Source: Methanobacteriota archaeon (GTDB taxonomy: Archaea; Thermoplasmatota; Poseidoniia; Poseidoniales; Poseidoniaceae). From it: a stretch of 64,000 bases of DNA. Shown one piece after another: positions 21,151 through 27,988 of this stretch. Position 1 is the stretch's first letter; each line of letters begins with the position of its first letter. Made by a program: the position numbers and the translations under genes. Below the pieces are notes generated by a model. It searched no databases. It saw nothing but the letters and a program-made list of their open reading frames with translations, and was not told where the DNA came from. The DNA lies in contig PBDU01000018.1 in NCBI GenBank assembly GCA_002718195.1, positions 16,108 through 80,107 on the forward strand. The letters run 5' to 3'.

Positions 21151-21194
21151 TAAACATTCAAATGATACCTAGATTAGCAAGGATTGGTGAGGAA

Positions 21195-21374
21195 ATGGGT
21201 TATTGCATAAACTGTGGTCAAGGACACGTAGATGGCACAAGATTTTGCAGGTTCTGTGGAAGCCAACAACCCGGAGAGCAATTGCTTGCTAGACTTAGGC
21301 AAGAAGCTCTTTACATTCAACAGATGAGATTCGGCCAAAATCAGAATTTTGGTTACGGAAATCAGCGCTGGTGA
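21195..21374 (+). CDS. Small zinc-ribbon protein
   Basis: CINCG...FCRFCG; GGTGAGG RBS before ATG 21195. Confidence 0.75.
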   Translation: MGYCINCGQGHVDGTRFCRFCGSQQPGEQLLARLRQEALYIQQMRFGQNQNFGYGNQRW

Positions 21375-21378
21375 TTAA

Positions 21379-21990
21379 TTGAAAAAGAAACACCTAGCAA
21401 TTACTCTCTCGAAGTTAATTCCTCATCCGCATCTTAATGTTAATCTTGAACAATATGCAACCGAAGGTGATGTGGCGAGTAACTGGATTTTTGCTATTGC
21501 AGAAAAATTTGAGTTTGTCGATTCAAATATTCTTGACTTGGGTTCCGGTAATGGTATCTTGGGGATTGCTGCATATTATGCTGGAGCCTCGAGGATAACT
21601 CTGGTCGAAACAGATACTAATGCCCATGAGGTCGCTCAATCAAATGTTGATAATTTGGAATTCAATAATCGATTTACCCTGCTGAATTCTAAGATTTCTG
21701 ATATTGAAATCGATTGGAAAGGCATTGATCTAGTCATCTCTAATCCGCCTTGGGGATATCAGATGGAGAAGGCAGATAGAGAATTTATTGAAATTGGTAT
21801 GCGGAATAATGTCGCAGAAATTCACATCTTACATAGTTCAAAAGCAACGCACTTAGAGAAAATTGGGAAGGAATATGGGTATGATACTGAAGTTATTTTG
21901 CAAGGAAGCTTCAGACTTCCTGCAATTTATTCTCATCATACAAAGTCATCTGAATTTACTGAATTTTCAGCATGGAGATTTTTCAAATAA
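21379..21990 (+). CDS. METTL5-like SAM-dependent methyltransferase
   Basis: LEQYAT, DLGSGNGILG, NPPW motif; sits upstream of csl4 as in many archaea. Confidence 0.85.
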   Translation: MKKKHLAITLSKLIPHPHLNVNLEQYATEGDVASNWIFAIAEKFEFVDSNILDLGSGNGILGIAAYYAGASRITLVETDTNAHEVAQSNVDNLEFNNRFTLLNSKISDIEIDWKGIDLVISNPPWGYQMEKADREFIEIGMRNNVAEIHILHSSKATHLEKIGKEYGYDTEVILQGSFRLPAIYSHHTKSSEFTEFSAWRFFK

Positions 21991-22075
21991 CCCTTATTCA
22001 TAGGGAGAGGGGTTCAAAAGTCGAGAGCATTTGGGAAGGAATGTCCAGGGGTTAACTCTGGCATTGTGTGATATT

Positions 22076-23440
22076 ATGACGACGAGCCTCGTCACCCCTG
22101 GTGAAATTATTGGAAGCGCTACTGAACTTACACCTGGTTCAGGAACAACCGAACATAATGGAAATGTCATTTCCATATACACTGGAAATTTGAATATAGA
22201 TTCTGGTGTTGCTACAGTAACCCCACAATCAGTTATCATCGCTCCAAGTGTTGGAGAGTTGGTACTCGCAGAGGTCACAAAGGTACAGGAGAAAAGTGCC
22301 GAGGTTAAAATTCTTGAATTCTGCGATAAAAAAGGAGATGTAGCGGCAGAGTTCCTCTACGCTCAATTGAGGGTCACTGAAGTTGTCGATCGATTCCTTC
22401 ACAATCTTGGAGATGGTCTAAAATTAAGAGATGTGGTCAGAGCAGAAATCACAGAGATTGACCCAACGATCAGAATTTCCCTAAGAGGCAGAGATGAGTG
22501 CGGTGTGATTAGTGCAGTTTGTTCTAACAGTGGTGAAAAATTAGTAATCGATGTTCAAGGGGATACGAATCTTGTTTGCCATACAAGTGGTACTCGATAC
22601 TTCAGGGCAATAGCATCTGATTATGGAAATTACGGCAATCATTTCGATGGAGAACTGAAATCTCTTACGTTATCTGGGAAAAGATGGGATAGGGCTACAG
22701 AGGCAGAATTTGCGAAAGGTCCTGCAGCAAGAGCCGCATATCCGATGGCTGACATCAGGAATGATGGTCGAGAAAAGAAGATGTTCAGATTTGAAGGCGA
22801 ATCTGGAAAAGGTCAGAGAAGAAGAAATACACATGCTCCTGGTTCGAAATTATTCATTGGTGGATTGTCGTATGAGGTCGATACAGAGGAACTAAAAGGT
22901 TTGATGACTAAGTTGGGATCTGTTGAAGATTGTGTGGTAGTTAATGATGAAAATGGTAAATCAAGAGGATTTGGATTCGTTACTTTTTCCTCCAAAGAGG
23001 AGGCTCAAGCGGCTATCTCAAAGTATGATGGTTACAGGCTCAAGGGTCGAAGGATTTCAGTGAAGGACGCAGATAACAAAGGCGAAAAGAAGGAGAAAAA
23101 ACCTGAGGTAAAAGGTCAGAAATTGTATGTCGGCAACCTTTCTTTCAAACTATCATCCGATGACCTCATCAAACACTTTTCAGAAATCTGCGGTGTTGAA
23201 GGAGGCTTCATTGTTTCAGACCCCAGAGGTAAATCCAAAGGTTTCGGATTCGTATTTGTTAATCAATCTGAAAATATTGATGATGTTATTTCGAAGGCTA
23301 ACGGCTCAGAATTAGGAGGACGAAATCTCAAGGTGGCAAAGGCTACTGAGAATAAATCCAAGGGAGATTCAAAGAAGAGCCAACCAAAGAAAAGACTCAG
23401 CAGAGAAGAAATGGCTAAAAAAGAAGAAGGCTATGAATGA
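22076..23440 (+). CDS. csl4: Exosome cap subunit Csl4 fused to two RRM RNA-binding domains
   Basis: N-terminus VTPGEIIG/PGSGT, S1 domain (PSVGELVLAEV...DVVRAEI), Zn-ribbon remnant (GVISAVC...R..ASDYG); then LFIGGL/RGFGFVTF and LYVGNL/KGFGFVFV RNP2/RNP1 motifs. Confidence 0.85.
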   Translation: MTTSLVTPGEIIGSATELTPGSGTTEHNGNVISIYTGNLNIDSGVATVTPQSVIIAPSVGELVLAEVTKVQEKSAEVKILEFCDKKGDVAAEFLYAQLRVTEVVDRFLHNLGDGLKLRDVVRAEITEIDPTIRISLRGRDECGVISAVCSNSGEKLVIDVQGDTNLVCHTSGTRYFRAIASDYGNYGNHFDGELKSLTLSGKRWDRATEAEFAKGPAARAAYPMADIRNDGREKKMFRFEGESGKGQRRRNTHAPGSKLFIGGLSYEVDTEELKGLMTKLGSVEDCVVVNDENGKSRGFGFVTFSSKEEAQAAISKYDGYRLKGRRISVKDADNKGEKKEKKPEVKGQKLYVGNLSFKLSSDDLIKHFSEICGVEGGFIVSDPRGKSKGFGFVFVNQSENIDDVISKANGSELGGRNLKVAKATENKSKGDSKKSQPKKRLSREEMAKKEEGYE

Positions 23441-25236
23441 AATTAGTTTCAAGGTGTCAGTACATGGTTGAGAAAACCGAACTGAAGTGGCTTGTCTTAG
23501 ATGGCTATGAAGATGAACCAGCTGCCTTCGGAGTACCACCTTACATCGGTTTTCATGTAAGATATGTTTGTGGAGTCTTTGAGAAATTGAAAATTGACTA
23601 TGACTTCATAACCGTAGATGAATACAGGATGAAGTTGTTATCCGGCGAAGATGCTGATGAATATCTAAGTAAATACTCCGGGTTTGTTTGTATTGCAGGG
23701 GCTGTCGTTCCTGGAAAGTATCTCCGTGGAACTCCTATTTCGCTAAAAGAATTACAAAATGTCGTGAAGAACCTACCAAATCAAATACCAACTTTACTGG
23801 GAGGATGGGCTGTAAGGGCTTGGAGGCAGCAAGGTTGGAATCCCCTGAGAAAAAACATGTTCATTGCTCTACAAGATACGGATGCATCACTATTTCATTA
23901 TCTTCAGTGCGAAGAATGGAAGCATAAACGCAGAACTAGTGAGCAATGGGATGATTATGCACTCCTAGGAGCAAAATCCAAAGCAGTAAAACAGCATCCA
24001 GATTCATTAACCTTCAATGCTAATTCACCGCTTACTTACGAGGTCGAGGTATACCAAGGCTGTGTTAGATACAAGCAAGGATGTAAATTTTGTATTGAGC
24101 CCAAGAAAGGAGTTCCAATCTTTAGATCTCCTGAGAGAATCATTCAGGAAGTCCAATTAGCATTAGACTCAGGTGTTCAAAATGTACGGCTAGGGGGAAT
24201 GACCGACACTTACACTTACATGGCTGAGGGAGTAACTGAACTAGAGTATCCAATTCCTAATCCCGAACCAATAGCAAAGTTGTTACACGGTTTGAGGGAG
24301 GATGAGAGGTTGAAAATACTTCATACCGACAACGGCAATCCAAGCATAATTGCCGAAAATTTAGAACCTAGTGAAGAGATAACTAAAACTCTAGTAGAAA
24401 CATTATCAGACGGAGCGGTCTTATCCTTCGGTTTGGAATCAGCAGACCCGGAAGTTCACAAGATTAATTGGCTAAACTGTTCATCAAATCAACTGAAAAC
24501 CGCTGTGAATTTAATCAACAAGTACGGTAGGGGTAGAGGTGAAAGAGGTCTGCCAAAACTTCTGCCCGGACTTAACTTCATAGCAGGTCTGAATGGTGAA
24601 ACCATCCAATCATACGATATGAATCTCAAACTACTTCGTGACTTACGCTCCAACGGTTCATGGCTTAGAAGAATCAATGTCAGACAGGTCGAAGGAGAAG
24701 GATTCCAAGAAATTCCTGAGGGCAAATTCAAGGATTTTAAAGTTGCAGTTAGGGATGAAATAGATGCACCATTGCTGGAAGAATTATTTCCCGTAGGTCA
24801 AATCTTGCGAGATGTTCACTGGGAGTCCCATGATAACAGGACTAGATTGCCTTCCAATCTTGCTCAATCGCATCAAGAAGAAGCGATTAGAGGGAAATCT
24901 GGAGTGACTTTTGGAAGGCAGATTGGGGCTTATCCTATACTAATTGGTGCTAACTACAAAATTCCTTTAGAAACAAGAAGTGACGTAGTGGTTACCTCTC
25001 ACGGGAAAAGATCGATTACTGCTATCGAGATAGGAATGTCGTTGGATGAAGTATCGCAATCTCAACTTTCTGCTCTGCCGGGAATAGGAGAAAAAACAGC
25101 ATGGAATATAATCTCGAAGAGAGCAAAATCCAAGAGGAAAAATCCTAGTCAAAAAGCATTTGAATCGGTACCCGATGCTTTCGAATCGATTAATTCCCCA
25201 ATACCAGAATTAGCAGAACTTGTGTTCGTTGCGTGA
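23437..25236 (+). CDS. Radical SAM protein with C-terminal helix-hairpin-helix (COG1031-like)
   Basis: LDGYEDEPAAFGVPPY N-terminus, GCVRYKQGCKFC, SFGLES, GRQIGAYPIL, LPGIGEK HhH. Confidence 0.85.
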   Translation: MKLVSRCQYMVEKTELKWLVLDGYEDEPAAFGVPPYIGFHVRYVCGVFEKLKIDYDFITVDEYRMKLLSGEDADEYLSKYSGFVCIAGAVVPGKYLRGTPISLKELQNVVKNLPNQIPTLLGGWAVRAWRQQGWNPLRKNMFIALQDTDASLFHYLQCEEWKHKRRTSEQWDDYALLGAKSKAVKQHPDSLTFNANSPLTYEVEVYQGCVRYKQGCKFCIEPKKGVPIFRSPERIIQEVQLALDSGVQNVRLGGMTDTYTYMAEGVTELEYPIPNPEPIAKLLHGLREDERLKILHTDNGNPSIIAENLEPSEEITKTLVETLSDGAVLSFGLESADPEVHKINWLNCSSNQLKTAVNLINKYGRGRGERGLPKLLPGLNFIAGLNGETIQSYDMNLKLLRDLRSNGSWLRRINVRQVEGEGFQEIPEGKFKDFKVAVRDEIDAPLLEELFPVGQILRDVHWESHDNRTRLPSNLAQSHQEEAIRGKSGVTFGRQIGAYPILIGANYKIPLETRSDVVVTSHGKRSITAIEIGMSLDEVSQSQLSALPGIGEKTAWNIISKRAKSKRKNPSQKAFESVPDAFESINSPIPELAELVFVA

Positions 25237-27495
25237 TTAATCTAGAGAAATTCCGCCTCTTGTTTTCACAGCAATTCCTTTAGAGAAACTCAATAGGTCT
25301 TCTGGAGTAGATTTAGAAATGCCATAGCCCAATAAATCTCCATTAGAATTGACGATTAGTGCTGGTTGGTCAATAGTCAGCCAAGGATCGCATGCTTTGA
25401 CAAATCCGTGGAATACATTACGTCCTTTTCTAACAAATGGTTCTGCATCATCTTCGACAACAACGACAGGAAGACCGGCTCCAGAGTTATTCCATGGCAT
25501 GTGCGGTTTGAAGGCATCTGGAATGGGTTTTGTTCTTGTGCCGTAAATTTTCTTTGCACCGGCTGAGGTAAGAGATAATCCACCATCATTCAGCCTTGGA
25601 CTTGCGATGTGTTCACCACTTTTATCGATGATATTCTTTATCCTACCAGTGCTTGACATTATGTATGTACAGCCTTTTGACAAATTTTCTGCATCGGTTA
25701 TCGAGATGTTAAAGTGTACTGCCAACTTATCTCTAACTTGATTTTCCTTCAAGGAAGTCTTTGCCTCAGTTTTTTGCTCATCGCTCATCAAATCAAGGAA
25801 TTTAGATTTATCATCTAATATCTCATTTTCAAAAAGCAGATCATAACAACGTGAAAGTAGATCTTTAGGACCAAGGTCGAGCTTGATAATTTTTGCATCA
25901 TGTACTCCAAGCCGTTCCAATTCTCTTCTAGCCCACGACAAATCGAGTTTTCTCTCCCAAATCCATTCTGGTCCCTCAACATGAGCAAATGGGTTGTTGT
26001 CTTCTAATGAATAAGGAATCAGACCAATTGGAGTCTGGATAAAAACCTGCAAATCTGGTGTGAATGTTGTCAATCTCATCAGTAGATCTAAGGTGAAATC
26101 TCTCCATGGCCCTTGTCTGCCGTAAAGAACTAAAGCAATATTGTTGTCACTATTACCGCCTATTTGGGAATATCTGGAATGAAGTAACCTTCTTGCTTGA
26201 ACCACATATGGTCTTGAGAATGTGTCTTCCTCAGCCCAATGTATCCCACCTGTCCTAAATTGTGATTGTCCTGCGACAACCCAATCCCAAGATGGCTCCC
26301 AGGAGCCCTGGGATGAACCACTTTCTTTAGCAGCACCTCTATCTGTGATCTTCATGTCTTGGATAATTTCTAATTCAAACCTCGGCATATGTGGATTTGT
26401 TGTTAGCCACAAGAATGCTTCTCTAAGGGCTGGGTGTTGGTGACTTCTTCTTTCTGCAAGCCTCCAAATCGAACCATCTCTAACTGCTTGCTTACATCTG
26501 CTTATCTCTTGAAGAGTAATTTCTAGGTTATATCTTGCAAGTAATTTAGTTCTCTCCTCCTCATCTAATTTTCTTACCTCTTGAGGTGAGATCTGAGAAA
26601 CAGAAGGCATAATAATCGGCCAGTGTTCTAGTTTTTCCAATTTTTCAGTACCCCATGGGCACAAAATTCTACCGTCTCGAGCAAATAATGCATAAGCAGC
26701 TGAGTCAAACAAATCAGCTCCAAGAGCGACTAGCATGGGGAATAACATTGGATGACCACAGCCGAACATATGTCTTGGCCTTGAAGATGGCAAATGAGGA
26801 ATTGAAGAGAGCATTATTTTGACTAAATCTTTGTACATGTGCTGTTCCATAATGGGCACAATTCCACCTATTGGATGAACGGCAAAATCATAATTGCCCA
26901 TTCCAAACGCAGATTTTTCTCTTAGATCTTTGAAGGTGCCTCCCTGAATTGGTCCATTCAGCATTGTCTTATCGGCACAAGCAATACTCGATTCTGCCCT
27001 TGCAATCGTATCATCAACTGCTTGCTCAACTTCTTGCTTAGTCATGTCCGGTCTTGTGAAAACATCTAGCATAGTAGCAATATCCACGCCAATATTTTTC
27101 TGAAATTTTACAATTTCCTCAACCCCAACCTCAACATCTCCGTAAATGTAGGATTGGAATGTACCAGAATCGGTCATAATTACGCCGGGAAAGTCGATTA
27201 ATTCATGAACTCCTGAATTGAGCGCTTTTTCCCTTAGATTGTCGTGCTTCCAAATGATGTATGAATTTGTGATTAATGCACCAATTCCATATCTGTCCCA
27301 CATCTCCCTTGGTTCAATGGTTCTTATGTTTGGATTAATCACTGGTAACAGAGCAGGTGTCTCTAAGATTCCATGCTCTGTATGCAATTTTCCAATTCTT
27401 GCTCTCCCGTCTAGAGCGACAACCTCAAATTTGCCTTTGTCAACTTCTCTACATGGTTTAGGGTCTTCCCTACGGCCATCAGTCCAACTAGACAT
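25237..27495 (-). CDS. tgtA: Archaeosine tRNA-guanine(15) transglycosylase with C-terminal PUA domain
   Basis: TPALLPVINP, ITNSYII, MTDSGTFQ, HMFGCGHP, DLFDSAAY; PUA EPFVRKGRNVF; start taken as MSSW. Confidence 0.93.
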   Translation of the reverse strand: MSSWTDGRREDPKPCREVDKGKFEVVALDGRARIGKLHTEHGILETPALLPVINPNIRTIEPREMWDRYGIGALITNSYIIWKHDNLREKALNSGVHELIDFPGVIMTDSGTFQSYIYGDVEVGVEEIVKFQKNIGVDIATMLDVFTRPDMTKQEVEQAVDDTIARAESSIACADKTMLNGPIQGGTFKDLREKSAFGMGNYDFAVHPIGGIVPIMEQHMYKDLVKIMLSSIPHLPSSRPRHMFGCGHPMLFPMLVALGADLFDSAAYALFARDGRILCPWGTEKLEKLEHWPIIMPSVSQISPQEVRKLDEEERTKLLARYNLEITLQEISRCKQAVRDGSIWRLAERRSHQHPALREAFLWLTTNPHMPRFELEIIQDMKITDRGAAKESGSSQGSWEPSWDWVVAGQSQFRTGGIHWAEEDTFSRPYVVQARRLLHSRYSQIGGNSDNNIALVLYGRQGPWRDFTLDLLMRLTTFTPDLQVFIQTPIGLIPYSLEDNNPFAHVEGPEWIWERKLDLSWARRELERLGVHDAKIIKLDLGPKDLLSRCYDLLFENEILDDKSKFLDLMSDEQKTEAKTSLKENQVRDKLAVHFNISITDAENLSKGCTYIMSSTGRIKNIIDKSGEHIASPRLNDGGLSLTSAGAKKIYGTRTKPIPDAFKPHMPWNNSGAGLPVVVVEDDAEPFVRKGRNVFHGFVKACDPWLTIDQPALIVNSNGDLLGYGISKSTPEDLLSFSKGIAVKTRGGISLD

Positions 27496-27538
27496 TGGAC
27501 GGTGCTGACAGGCTTTGCGTTTGAACCCAGCGGCATTA

Positions 27539-27988
27539 TCAGACAAATTCTACATTTCCATGAGCCAGAATGAATTCTCTGCCCAGCTCGTCAAATGTGT
27601 CAAGCAATTTAGAATCAAATCTTACTCTCCAAACTTCTGGATCATTCTCTAAATCTTTCTTAATTCCATCCAGAGTTCCAGGTGCAGCACCACAAGATAG
27701 ACAAGCTCCAGTCAGATCAAGCACGAAATCTATTCCATTGTCGTTCTCCACTGCCGCTACGCACAGAATTCCTCCTCCATGACCAGATAATGCTGCTCGA
27801 ACATCCCCGAGCCTTGTTAGCAGTCCTGGAACAAGATATTCAGTGCCGATTAAATCAGTCAATAGTGAATTTTTAAGTCTCAATTCCTCTTCAGGGTCAA
27901 GGATACTTTCCTCAATTCTTTTTTCTGCTTCTTGGCGCAATGAATCCTTTGCTTGCTGGGCATACATGTTTACCAAGTCATCGTCCAT
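27539..27988 (-). CDS. NifU/NfuA C-terminal-like Fe-S carrier protein
   Basis: VRAALSGHGGG..LTGACLSCG (CxxC); divergent from the suf operon. Confidence 0.8.
   Translation of the reverse strand: MDDDLVNMYAQQAKDSLRQEAEKRIEESILDPEEELRLKNSLLTDLIGTEYLVPGLLTRLGDVRAALSGHGGGILCVAAVENDNGIDFVLDLTGACLSCGAAPGTLDGIKKDLENDPEVWRVRFDSKLLDTFDELGREFILAHGNVEFV

Follow-up and report, generated by a model that had tools for sequence, protein, structure and literature searches.

The window, a stretch of 64,000 nucleotides of DNA from the archaeal order Poseidoniales, contains a single open frame (22031-23440, plus strand) that runs without interruption through a Csl4 gene joined in frame to two RRM domains. From N- to C-terminus the product consists of Csl4 (N-terminal domain, S1 and Zn ribbon), a linker motif, a Gly/Arg stretch, two RRM_1 domains and a Lys-rich tail (Table 1). 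In the AF2 model of the protein there are three confident globular units, with low-confidence linkers between them. Alignment shows that the Met equivalent to ATG 22076 is where the orthologues begin, so the coordinates of the original prediction, which described one uninterrupted ORF at 22076-23440, yield the correct product of 454 amino acids.

Table 1. Features of the Csl4-RRM locus and its flanking genes, in window coordinates.
Feature	Position	Strand	Basis
MTS-type methyltransferase gene, upstream	21379..21990	+	Pfam MTS, E 1.8e-11
Whole Csl4-RRM-RRM gene	22076..23440	+	454 codons plus stop; ORF, orthologue-supported start, independent contig without indels
Csl4 N-terminal domain (residues 5-42)	22088..22201	+	Pfam ECR1_N, E 2.5e-10
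S1-like beta-barrel of Csl4 (about residues 57-137)	22244..22486	+	inside NF034126 match; AF2 strands; aligned to 2BA1
Zn-ribbon domain of Csl4 (about residues 143-180), S152 and S171 in place of two of four Cys	22502..22615	+	alignments
Order-wide conserved linker motif (residues 196-232; G201, R203, W204, E209, D226, R228)	22661..22771	+	orthologue alignments
Disordered Gly/Arg/Lys-rich spacer (residues 233-257)	22772..22846	+	AF2 pLDDT <50; G/R-rich in orthologues
RRM1 (residues 259-327), canonical RNP2 and RNP1	22850..23056	+	Pfam RRM_1 positions 1-69 of 70; 80.8 bits
RRM2 (about residues 350-419), canonical RNP2 and RNP1	23123..23332	+	RRM_1, 51.2 bits
Lys-rich disordered tail with terminal conserved short helical motif (R443, E444, A447, E450, E451)	23342..23437	+	AF2, alignment
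Radical-SAM gene, downstream	23437..25236	+	ORF; Pfam Radical_SAM, E 3.3e-10

The first 190 or so residues had been predicted to have Csl4 architecture, and the profile, domain and fold matches all bear this out. In a Pfam and NCBIfam scan of the protein the NCBIfam Csl4 equivalog, NF034126, matches over its full length (101.7 bits against a cut-off of 90, residues 5-184 on model positions 2-179 of 180), and it scores 104.1 bits for the same protein in a genome-wide profile search. The best solved relative by sequence is the Csl4 of A. fulgidus, 2BA1 (phmmer, 2ba1_A, E 1.9e-12, residues 5-185 against 3-176), and the top Foldseek match is the same chain in the exosome core (E 6e-17, TMt 0.69). 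The three-domain Csl4 fold is modelled with a pLDDT of 80-92 across residues 1-185. Within it, the strands of the S1 region span residues 62-135 (pLDDT 80-92), and Pfam EXOSC1 gives a weak score there (15.4 bits, cut-off 21.2). The N-terminal domain is reported to be the ring anchor in the archaeal exosome (PMC4227792); its residues V6, P8, G9, G21 and G23 are invariant in 45 orthologues.

Compared with canonical archaeal Csl4 (A. fulgidus AF0206, PDB 2BA1/3M7N/3M85; NF034126), the three modules align colinearly along all 180 model positions. As with the canonical gene there is one genomic copy, and a methyltransferase gene is the neighbour as it is at stand-alone genes. However, canonical Csl4 is about 185-200 amino acids long, whereas the protein described here reaches 454 with its linker, two RRMs and basic tail. 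The bit score of its Csl4 part is about half that of other Thermoplasmatota Csl4s, and more generally the module scores 75-128 bits across the Poseidoniales as against 140-205 for most of the remaining phylum. Judged by these scores, the Csl4 module of the order has evolved fast.

The Zn ribbon is degenerate, as had been described from the motif CSNS...CHTS: the two pairs read C149-S-N-S152 and C168-H-T-S171, so that the four-Cys zinc site used as a mark of archaeal Csl4 is here reduced to two of its four Cys. This is a peculiarity of the clade and not of the fusion. Among the 45 aligned orthologues C149 and C168 are present in every one, C152 in 43 and C171 in 42; both of the latter are missing only in this protein and its 99%-identical twin, and a relative at 76% is without one. 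In at least one stand-alone Csl4 (our locus L044), too, each pair is without its second Cys, and we therefore do not take the four-Cys site as strictly defining for Csl4.

The segment between the ribbon and the first RRM had been taken for a basic linker. A basic, G/R-rich stretch does exist, but this segment also holds a motif conserved across the order, with R203, W204 and D226 present in 45/45 orthologues. No Pfam family matched the motif when the protein was scanned. It is modelled as two short helices (206-213 and 216-220) at a pLDDT of about 60-70, and residues 220-252 fall below 50. The Lys-rich tail is likewise present. It is disordered over residues 426-441 (pLDDT <50) and ends in a helix (443-450) within a conserved C-terminal motif, for which R443 is kept in 42 and E444 in 36 of the 45 orthologues.

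The two RRMs had been called canonical, which holds at the level of profile, motif and fold. RRM_1 (PF00076) matches the protein twice (E 2.2e-36; 124 bits against a cut-off of 20.7), and both domains have the order E-H-E-E-H-E in the AF2 model, at a pLDDT of 86-89 for RRM1 and 80-87 for RRM2. The RNA-stacking aromatics of the RNP motifs are present and conserved (F260, F299 and F301 in RRM1; Y351, F390 and F392 in RRM2), with those of RRM1 kept in 35-36 of the 45 orthologues and F390 and F392 in 44. After Csl4 itself, the next Foldseek matches are tandem-RRM proteins such as Sxl, HuD, hnRNP A2/B1 and PABP. The two-RRM module on its own resembles this group (Sxl, HuD/HuR, hnRNP A2/B1, PABP RRM1-2 and the chloroplast RNPs cp28/cp29) at E values of about 1e-13 to 1e-14; the difference is that here the module sits on an exosome subunit, in an archaeon.

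The RRM-bearing Csl4 is a feature of the order. A Csl4 match was found in 118 of 121 sampled Poseidoniales genomes, and in 116 of these 118 it lies in a frame of 407-598 amino acids. At least one RRM is present on the Csl4 ORF at all 18 of the order loci inspected, and in the window besides. Elsewhere in the phylum, sister family included, an RRM on Csl4 was seen at 0 of the 21 loci examined; the sister-family proteins are RRM-free and measure 184 and 186 amino acids in two genomes. The fusion is order-wide in our survey and conserved lineage-wide.

The appended module varies by family, being either two RRMs or a zinc finger with one RRM. The latter arrangement is found in a family of the same order (f3 in our labelling, probably MGIIb, the name being inferred), which shares the Csl4 module, the linker motif, the C-terminal motif and the gene neighbours. 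It differs in carrying zf_Tbcl_2 (PF23477) and one RRM in place of the two RRMs seen here, and that single RRM is nearer to RRM1, with which it shares 40-44% identity, as against 28-34% for RRM2.

Some other Thermoplasmatota Csl4s (L051, L052 and L042) have long, RGG-rich C-terminal tails, which shows that the Csl4 C-terminus repeatedly gains RNA-binding appendages. A set of long-frame Csl4 outliers outside the order (L036-L042) was considered and set aside. Their apparent N-terminal extensions gave no Pfam match where they were scanned, and the long frames are likely to be earliest-start ORF calls that are over-extended.

The gene neighbourhood helps to place the origin of the extension. The MTS methyltransferase gene lies upstream of Csl4 at 17/18 order loci and at 9/21 loci elsewhere in the phylum, and because this neighbourhood is shared with stand-alone Csl4 genes, the extension must have arisen where the gene already lay. 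The radical-SAM gene is found downstream at 17/18 order loci and at 0/21 outside. The ATG of this gene and the stop of Csl4 overlap by 4 nt, so the two genes are probably co-transcribed. We conclude that the fusion gene is a true orthologue of Csl4 and occupies the ancestral locus.

The original prediction also spoke of "this exosome", and that part needs qualification: Rrp4, Rrp41 and Rrp42 are encoded by relatives, whereas none of the three was found in this assembly, so the exosome itself is inferred from related genomes. The only RNase_PH-domain gene in the assembly encodes a bacterial-type RNase PH (TIGR01966, 243 bits) and is neither Rrp41 nor Rrp42. Of 120 related genomes, 116 have Rrp41. 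The gene order Rrp4-Rrp41-Rrp42 of the operon is the same at all 21 loci examined (20 by blastp and one, L013, by NCBIfam). In a complete relative the genes psmA-SBDS-Rrp4-Rrp41-Rrp42 are consecutive. When 47 ORFs of that relative's 20-kb exosome block were used as tblastn queries against the present assembly, which is 91% complete, 2 weak paralogue-level matches were returned, and none of the real genes of the block, including proteasome alpha, SBDS and purB, was found. Since a whole block of at least 20 kb is missing, and Rrp41 is so widely retained, we read the absence of the ring genes as an assembly gap. We also considered that the exosome had been lost, leaving Csl4 orphaned or capping a ring of the bacterial-type RNase PH; as a trait of the lineage this is rejected on the same two grounds.

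We consider it likely that the protein is a Csl4 cap subunit with a permanent C-terminal RNA-binding extension, gained at the base of the Poseidoniales (Marine Group II). From its domain composition, the exosome of these archaea probably carries its own RNA-catching arms. As in other archaea, the N-terminal Csl4 module would be seated on the ring of Rrp41 and Rrp42. A complex prediction from alignments, with Rrp41, Rrp42 and Csl4 residues 9-200 of one relative (G003), gave a high but non-specific score, a control replacing Rrp42 scoring almost as high, and is not counted as evidence for this placement. The Csl4 C-terminus would face away from the ring and be extended by a linker of about 70 residues, in which the conserved motif is followed by the disordered Gly/Arg stretch. 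This linker would tether the two canonical RRMs and the basic tail, which may capture single-stranded RNA and so concentrate it locally at the S1 pore. The captured RNA would then undergo more phosphorolytic 3'-5' decay and, in the reverse reaction, more tailing. With up to three Csl4 subunits per cap, there could be up to six RRMs per exosome.

The eukaryotic exosome has RRM cofactors, such as RBM7 of NEXT and Nrd1/Nab3, whose RRMs deliver substrates to it. Rather than being fused to a cap subunit, these cofactors are proteins in their own right and work by way of helicase adaptors (Mtr4). It is plausible that the Poseidoniales protein plays a like part as an adaptor that selects RNA and is built into the exosome; the analogy is functional only, with homology seen here for the RRM fold alone. 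An experimental precedent is the engineered S. solfataricus Csl4-NT fusion, in which the N-terminal RNA-binding domain of DnaG was placed on the C-terminus of full-length Csl4. The exosome reconstituted with this fusion was reported to be active, to bind poly(A) more strongly and to decay poly(A) and A-rich RNA faster than with plain Csl4 (PMC4227792). The engineered protein is alike in carrying an RNA-binding domain at that position. It differs in being artificial and in the RNA-binding fold used, whereas the natural protein has tandem RRMs on a long linker.

One alternative is that the Csl4 module has been repurposed, and that the protein acts away from the exosome as a free multi-domain RNA chaperone or RNA-binding regulator (S1 + RRM + RRM), like the bacterial cold-induced RRM proteins. 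Some DPANN archaea are reported to run an exosome without any Csl4 (PMC7414124), so that in principle Csl4 might be available for a different function. The strong divergence of the module from the rest of the phylum, the eroded Zn site of this clade and the lack of ring subunits in this assembly would also fit, as would the 116 bits that an NCBIfam model for a bacterial "RNA-binding regulator" RRM scores on the fusion RRMs. However, several of the invariant positions lie in the N-terminal domain, by which Csl4 is anchored to the ring in solved structures, genomes that retain Rrp4, Rrp41 and Rrp42 have no Csl4 gene besides this one (which is also the sole Csl4 match in the present assembly), and the ring genes missing here fall within the gap that also removed proteasome alpha, SBDS and purB. 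We therefore regard repurposing as unlikely.

A further possibility concerns where the RRMs came from and what they now do. A query with both RRMs returned mostly eukaryotic two-RRM proteins at 30-41% identity over both domains, with canonical RNP motifs in the present protein, in a ranking that is biased to proteins with two RRMs. In a single-RRM query, for which 54 candidates were scored, the best matches are unnamed, and the small RRM protein encoded by the assembly itself shares only about 31-32% identity with the fusion RRMs. The RRMs may derive from small RRM proteins of bacterial type or from eukaryotes. The nearest named relatives are eukaryotic two-RRM proteins such as algal or plant chloroplast RNPs, and horizontal transfer from phytoplankton may be the source. 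If so, the module, together with putative docking motifs in the linker and at the C-terminus, could confer sequence-selective decay or tailing that takes over part or all of the DnaG route, and the swaps between families could retune this selectivity between MGIIa and MGIIb. As a whole we hold this scenario to be quite unlikely.

A separate alternative is that the RRM arms have replaced DnaG, the usual Csl4-bound, poly(A)-preferring recruiter, which would no longer dock on Csl4 in this order. The idea draws on the coverage of the archaeal DnaG model, which matched only positions 1-277 to 1-285 of 419 in this assembly, G003 (family f1), G027 (f3) and G004 (f2), whereas two sister-family genomes match it over 1-418; the C-terminal domain is reported to be important for binding to the Csl4-exosome (PMC4227792). 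Although this coverage suggested that the DnaG C-terminal domain had been lost, alignment shows it to be present, diverged and alignable with that of the sister family (19-28% identity, against 42-53% for the remainder), and loss was rejected. Other families with stand-alone Csl4 have equally short coverage of the model (e.g. 1-272 to 1-284 in f5), so the signal is not specific to the fusion. DnaG itself is kept in 35 of 36 sampled genomes of the order (the present assembly, 21/21 in f1 and 13/14 in f3). Outright replacement of DnaG is accordingly improbable.

A last alternative is an artefact, in which faulty assembly or sequencing, or a chimeric contig, had run a Csl4 gene into an adjacent gene for an RRM protein. 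It has a negligible chance of being right: its sole basis is a source that is a metagenome-assembled genome of 29 contigs. Against it, the same long frame is present in 116 of the 118 genomes that gave a Csl4 match, all assembled independently, and at least 92% of the query is covered by about 40 protein clusters (450-520 amino acids). Further evidence against it is the conservation of the joining linker itself and an independent metagenome contig (2025 run) that covers 21900-23600 and spans the whole gene with 23 substitutions and 0 indels. Among the 20 differences listed within the gene there are 17 synonymous ones; from residue 190 to the end, all 17 differences are of this kind, and this pattern indicates that the fusion is under purifying selection. 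In two RNA-library runs three short contigs lie on the gene (22441-22653, 22743-22958 and 23087-23263), with DNA carry-over possible, and none of the three bridges Csl4 to the RRMs. They are a weak indication that the gene is expressed.

The original prediction was made without knowledge of any description of this fusion, and our literature search likewise found no paper describing it. The main texts of two comparative-genomics papers on MGII make no mention of the exosome, RNA-binding, RRMs or RNA recognition.

Marine Group II are described as the most abundant archaea in the plankton of the surface ocean, and none has been brought into culture (PMC6461757). In the archaeal exosomes studied, substrate preference is reported to come from Rrp4 and from a separate protein, DnaG (PMC4227792). 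If our reading is true, this would be the first archaeal exosome that our search has turned up with adaptor domains built into its core, in the form of a natural, order-wide RRM fusion. The protein would be the natural counterpart of the engineered Csl4 fusion shown to speed decay, and it would parallel the RRM cofactors of eukaryotic exosomes. The two family-specific architectures, RRM-RRM and zinc finger-RRM, would offer a natural comparison.

The original prediction held that this gene joins the archaeal exosome cap protein Csl4 in frame to two RRM domains. The fused architecture is real, as follows from the Pfam and NCBIfam matches, the likeness to a solved Csl4 structure and the separate units of an AlphaFold2 model (see the table). 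We place the start of the gene at ATG 22076 because the orthologues begin at this methionine. In both sequence (E 1.9e-12) and fold (Foldseek E 6e-17, TMt 0.69) the nearest solved structure is the A. fulgidus Csl4 (2BA1), after which the Foldseek ranking continues with the tandem-RRM proteins Sxl, HuD, hnRNP A2/B1, HuR and PABP. The AlphaFold2 model, built from a 45-sequence alignment, has a mean pLDDT of 76.8 and a pTM of 0.42 over the whole protein.

Features of the Csl4-RRM gene, its product and related genes (G000, source genome; C, contig; L, locus)
Feature	Position	Strand	Length	Evidence
Open frame	window 22031-23440	+		ORF call, single frame
Csl4-RRM gene	window 22076-23440	+	454 aa	orthologue alignment
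ECR1_N	residues 5-42			Pfam, E 2.5e-10
Csl4 equivalog NF034126	residues 5-184			NCBIfam, model positions 2-179 of 180, 101.7 bits (cut-off 90)
RRM_1, two copies				Pfam, E 2.2e-36
Csl4 module	residues 1-185			AlphaFold2, pLDDT 80-92
Linker, two short helices	residues 190-220			AlphaFold2, pLDDT about 60-70
Disordered stretch	residues 220-252			AlphaFold2, pLDDT below 50
RRM1	residues 258-331			AlphaFold2, pLDDT 86-89
RRM2	residues 348-422			AlphaFold2, pLDDT 80-87
Tail	after residue 422			AlphaFold2, mostly disordered, short helix 443-450
Small ORF	window 21162-21374	+	70 aa	PF13240, 24.1 bits, slightly below cut-off
Radical-SAM gene	window 23437-25236	+	599 aa	
Archaeosine tRNA-guanine transglycosylase TgtA	window 25237-27546	-	769-aa ORF	TIGR00432, 451 bits
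Bacterial-type RNase PH	G000:C11:109470-110294 (= L008:6471-7295)	-	274 aa	TIGR01966, 243 bits (cut-off 141.5)
DnaG	G000:C8:25804-27063 (= L053:931-2190)	+		346 bits
RRM_1 match in a small stand-alone frame	G000:C15:1843-2067	-	frame of 111 aa	RRM_1, 38.8 bits
RRM_1 match in a small stand-alone frame	G000:C16:12687-12806	-	frame of 96 aa	RRM_1, 22.4 bits

Neither a stop codon nor a chimeric join separates the Csl4 and RRM parts. One contig from a metagenome run of a different study (X7) covers 21900-23600 with 23 substitutions and no indels, a second run (X6) covers every bin, again without indels, and long frames are found order-wide. The X7 differences listed within the gene are synonymous in 17 of 20 cases, and each of the 17 at or beyond residue 190 is among these, which indicates that the extension is under purifying selection. 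Two RNA libraries gave three short contigs on the gene, none of them across the Csl4-RRM junction and all open to DNA carry-over. The source genome (2.03 Mb, 29 contigs, 91% complete) holds a single Csl4 match in a profile search. A protein search returned about 40 clusters of 450-520 aa, with at least 92% query coverage and 37-76% identity. Some of these bear the name ‘exosome complex RNA-binding protein Csl4 [Candidatus Poseidoniaceae archaeon]’ at NCBI or ‘RNA recognition motif-containing protein/exosome complex RNA-binding protein Csl4’ at JGI; the Csl4 identity of the protein is thus already in database annotation. The fusion is not known to have been described before, and the literature that we searched holds no published description of it; in the main texts of two comparative-genomics papers on MGII, exosome and RRM both go unmentioned.

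We surveyed the fusion across Poseidoniales and beyond. Csl4 is present in 118 of the 121 sampled genomes of the order, i.e. the source genome and 58/59, 2/2 and 57/59 genomes of the families f1, f2 and f3. Its frame spans 407-598 aa in 116 of these, the two short exceptions being one 278-aa frame and one fragment at a contig start. In the phylum sample 170 of 201 genomes have Csl4, and the frames outside the order are mostly 185-260 aa. We regard the fusion as a synapomorphy of the order, because at least one RRM lies on the Csl4 ORF in all 18 inspected loci of the order and in none of the 21 inspected outside it (10 top matches, 9 outliers with long frames and the two genomes of the sister family f4, with Csl4 proteins of 184 and 186 aa). 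The order name Poseidoniales follows the organism names given for the protein clusters, and we infer that f3 is MGIIb and f4 is MGIII. According to Pfam the appended module varies between families: it is RRM-RRM in f1, a treble-clef zinc finger (PF23477) plus one RRM in f3, and two RRMs in one f2 genome and one in the other. The single f3 RRM is 40-44% identical to RRM1 versus 28-34% to RRM2. The source genome also has two stand-alone small-RRM frames, and the Csl4 RRMs share about 31-32% identity with the product of the one on C15.

An MTS-type methyltransferase gene lies upstream of Csl4 in the window, as it does in 17/18 loci of the order and 9/21 outside. Since this linkage is also found at stand-alone Csl4 genes, it speaks for an in situ origin of the extension at the ancestral Csl4 locus. 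A radical-SAM gene is found directly downstream in 17/18 loci of the order and 0/21 outside; in the window its start overlaps the Csl4 stop. Its protein is 55-67% identical across the order, a Pfam scan assigned it no specific family, and its C-terminus resembles, by eye, a helix-hairpin-helix motif. The TIGR00432 match leaves out the first 39 residues of the TgtA ORF, which may reflect an over-extended TTG start. The small ORF directly upstream of the methyltransferase gene carries a zinc-ribbon motif.

The degenerate Zn ribbon noted at the outset is borne out by the alignment of 45 orthologues. C149 and C168 are invariant, while positions 152 and 171 are Cys in 43/45 and 42/45; Ser stands at both positions in the window protein and in its 99% twin, and a 76% relative lacks one of the two Cys. 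The erosion is a peculiarity of the clade and no part of the fusion. Residues 196-232 of the linker form an order-wide motif (G201 in 44/45, R203, W204 and D226 in 45/45, R228 in 43/45) that no Pfam family matched, and a G/R-rich stretch comes after it. Both RRMs keep the RNA-stacking aromatics of RNP2 and RNP1. A short motif at the extreme C-terminus (R443 in 42/45) is conserved and present in both architectures. The Csl4 module itself scores 75-128 bits against the Csl4 model in the order versus 140-205 in most other members of the phylum.

A search of the source assembly for the ring genes Rrp41, Rrp42 and Rrp4 found none. Their absence is no lineage trait, since Rrp41 is present in 116 of the order's 120 other genomes, each time with an E-value of at most 5.5e-78. 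The three genes are adjacent in 21/21 loci (20 by blastp, L013 by NCBIfam), and in a single-contig relative (L013, G003:C1:1188000-1207900) the order is psmA-SBDS-Rrp4-Rrp41-Rrp42. None of the genuine genes of this 20-kb block, including proteasome alpha, SBDS and purB, was found in the source genome. An assembly gap explains this most simply, because the block, at least 20 kb long, is missing as a whole and Rrp41 is so widespread among the relatives; absences in this genome are therefore not to be read as gene loss. The sole RNase PH-domain gene of the assembly is of the bacterial type. RNase PH is unusual in archaea. Many genomes of the order have a second, weaker RNase PH-like match, which may be this same bacterial-type gene.

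DnaG is present in the source genome and in 35 of 36 sampled genomes of the order. The archaeal DnaG NCBIfam model (419 positions) is matched over 1-277 in the source genome, and over 1-277 to 1-285 when three further genomes of the order are included, versus 1-418 in the sister family. A lost DnaG link is unsupported, because families with plain Csl4 show equally short matches to the model; moreover, the C-terminal domain of DnaG in the order is still present and alignable, though fast-evolving.

RGG-rich C-terminal tails occur on stand-alone Csl4 proteins of other Thermoplasmatota, of about 110-120 aa in L051 (G147) and L052 (G277) and about 50 aa in L042 (G134); the two that were scanned gave no Pfam domain. 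These tails are another type of RNA-binding appendage, independent of the RRM extension, and the C-terminus of Csl4 appears to receive such additions repeatedly. According to Hou et al. (2014, PMC4227792), Csl4 itself binds poly(A) poorly, and placing an RNA-binding domain on its C-terminus yields exosomes with faster decay of poly(A) and A-rich RNA. The natural counterpart of that engineered fusion is the Poseidoniales protein. Given this precedent, the conserved anchor domain and the two canonical RRMs, which are carried, along with the G/R stretch and the basic tail, on flexible tethers of about 70 residues, we consider it probable that the RRM arms bind single-stranded RNA and deliver it to the S1 pore to be degraded or tailed.
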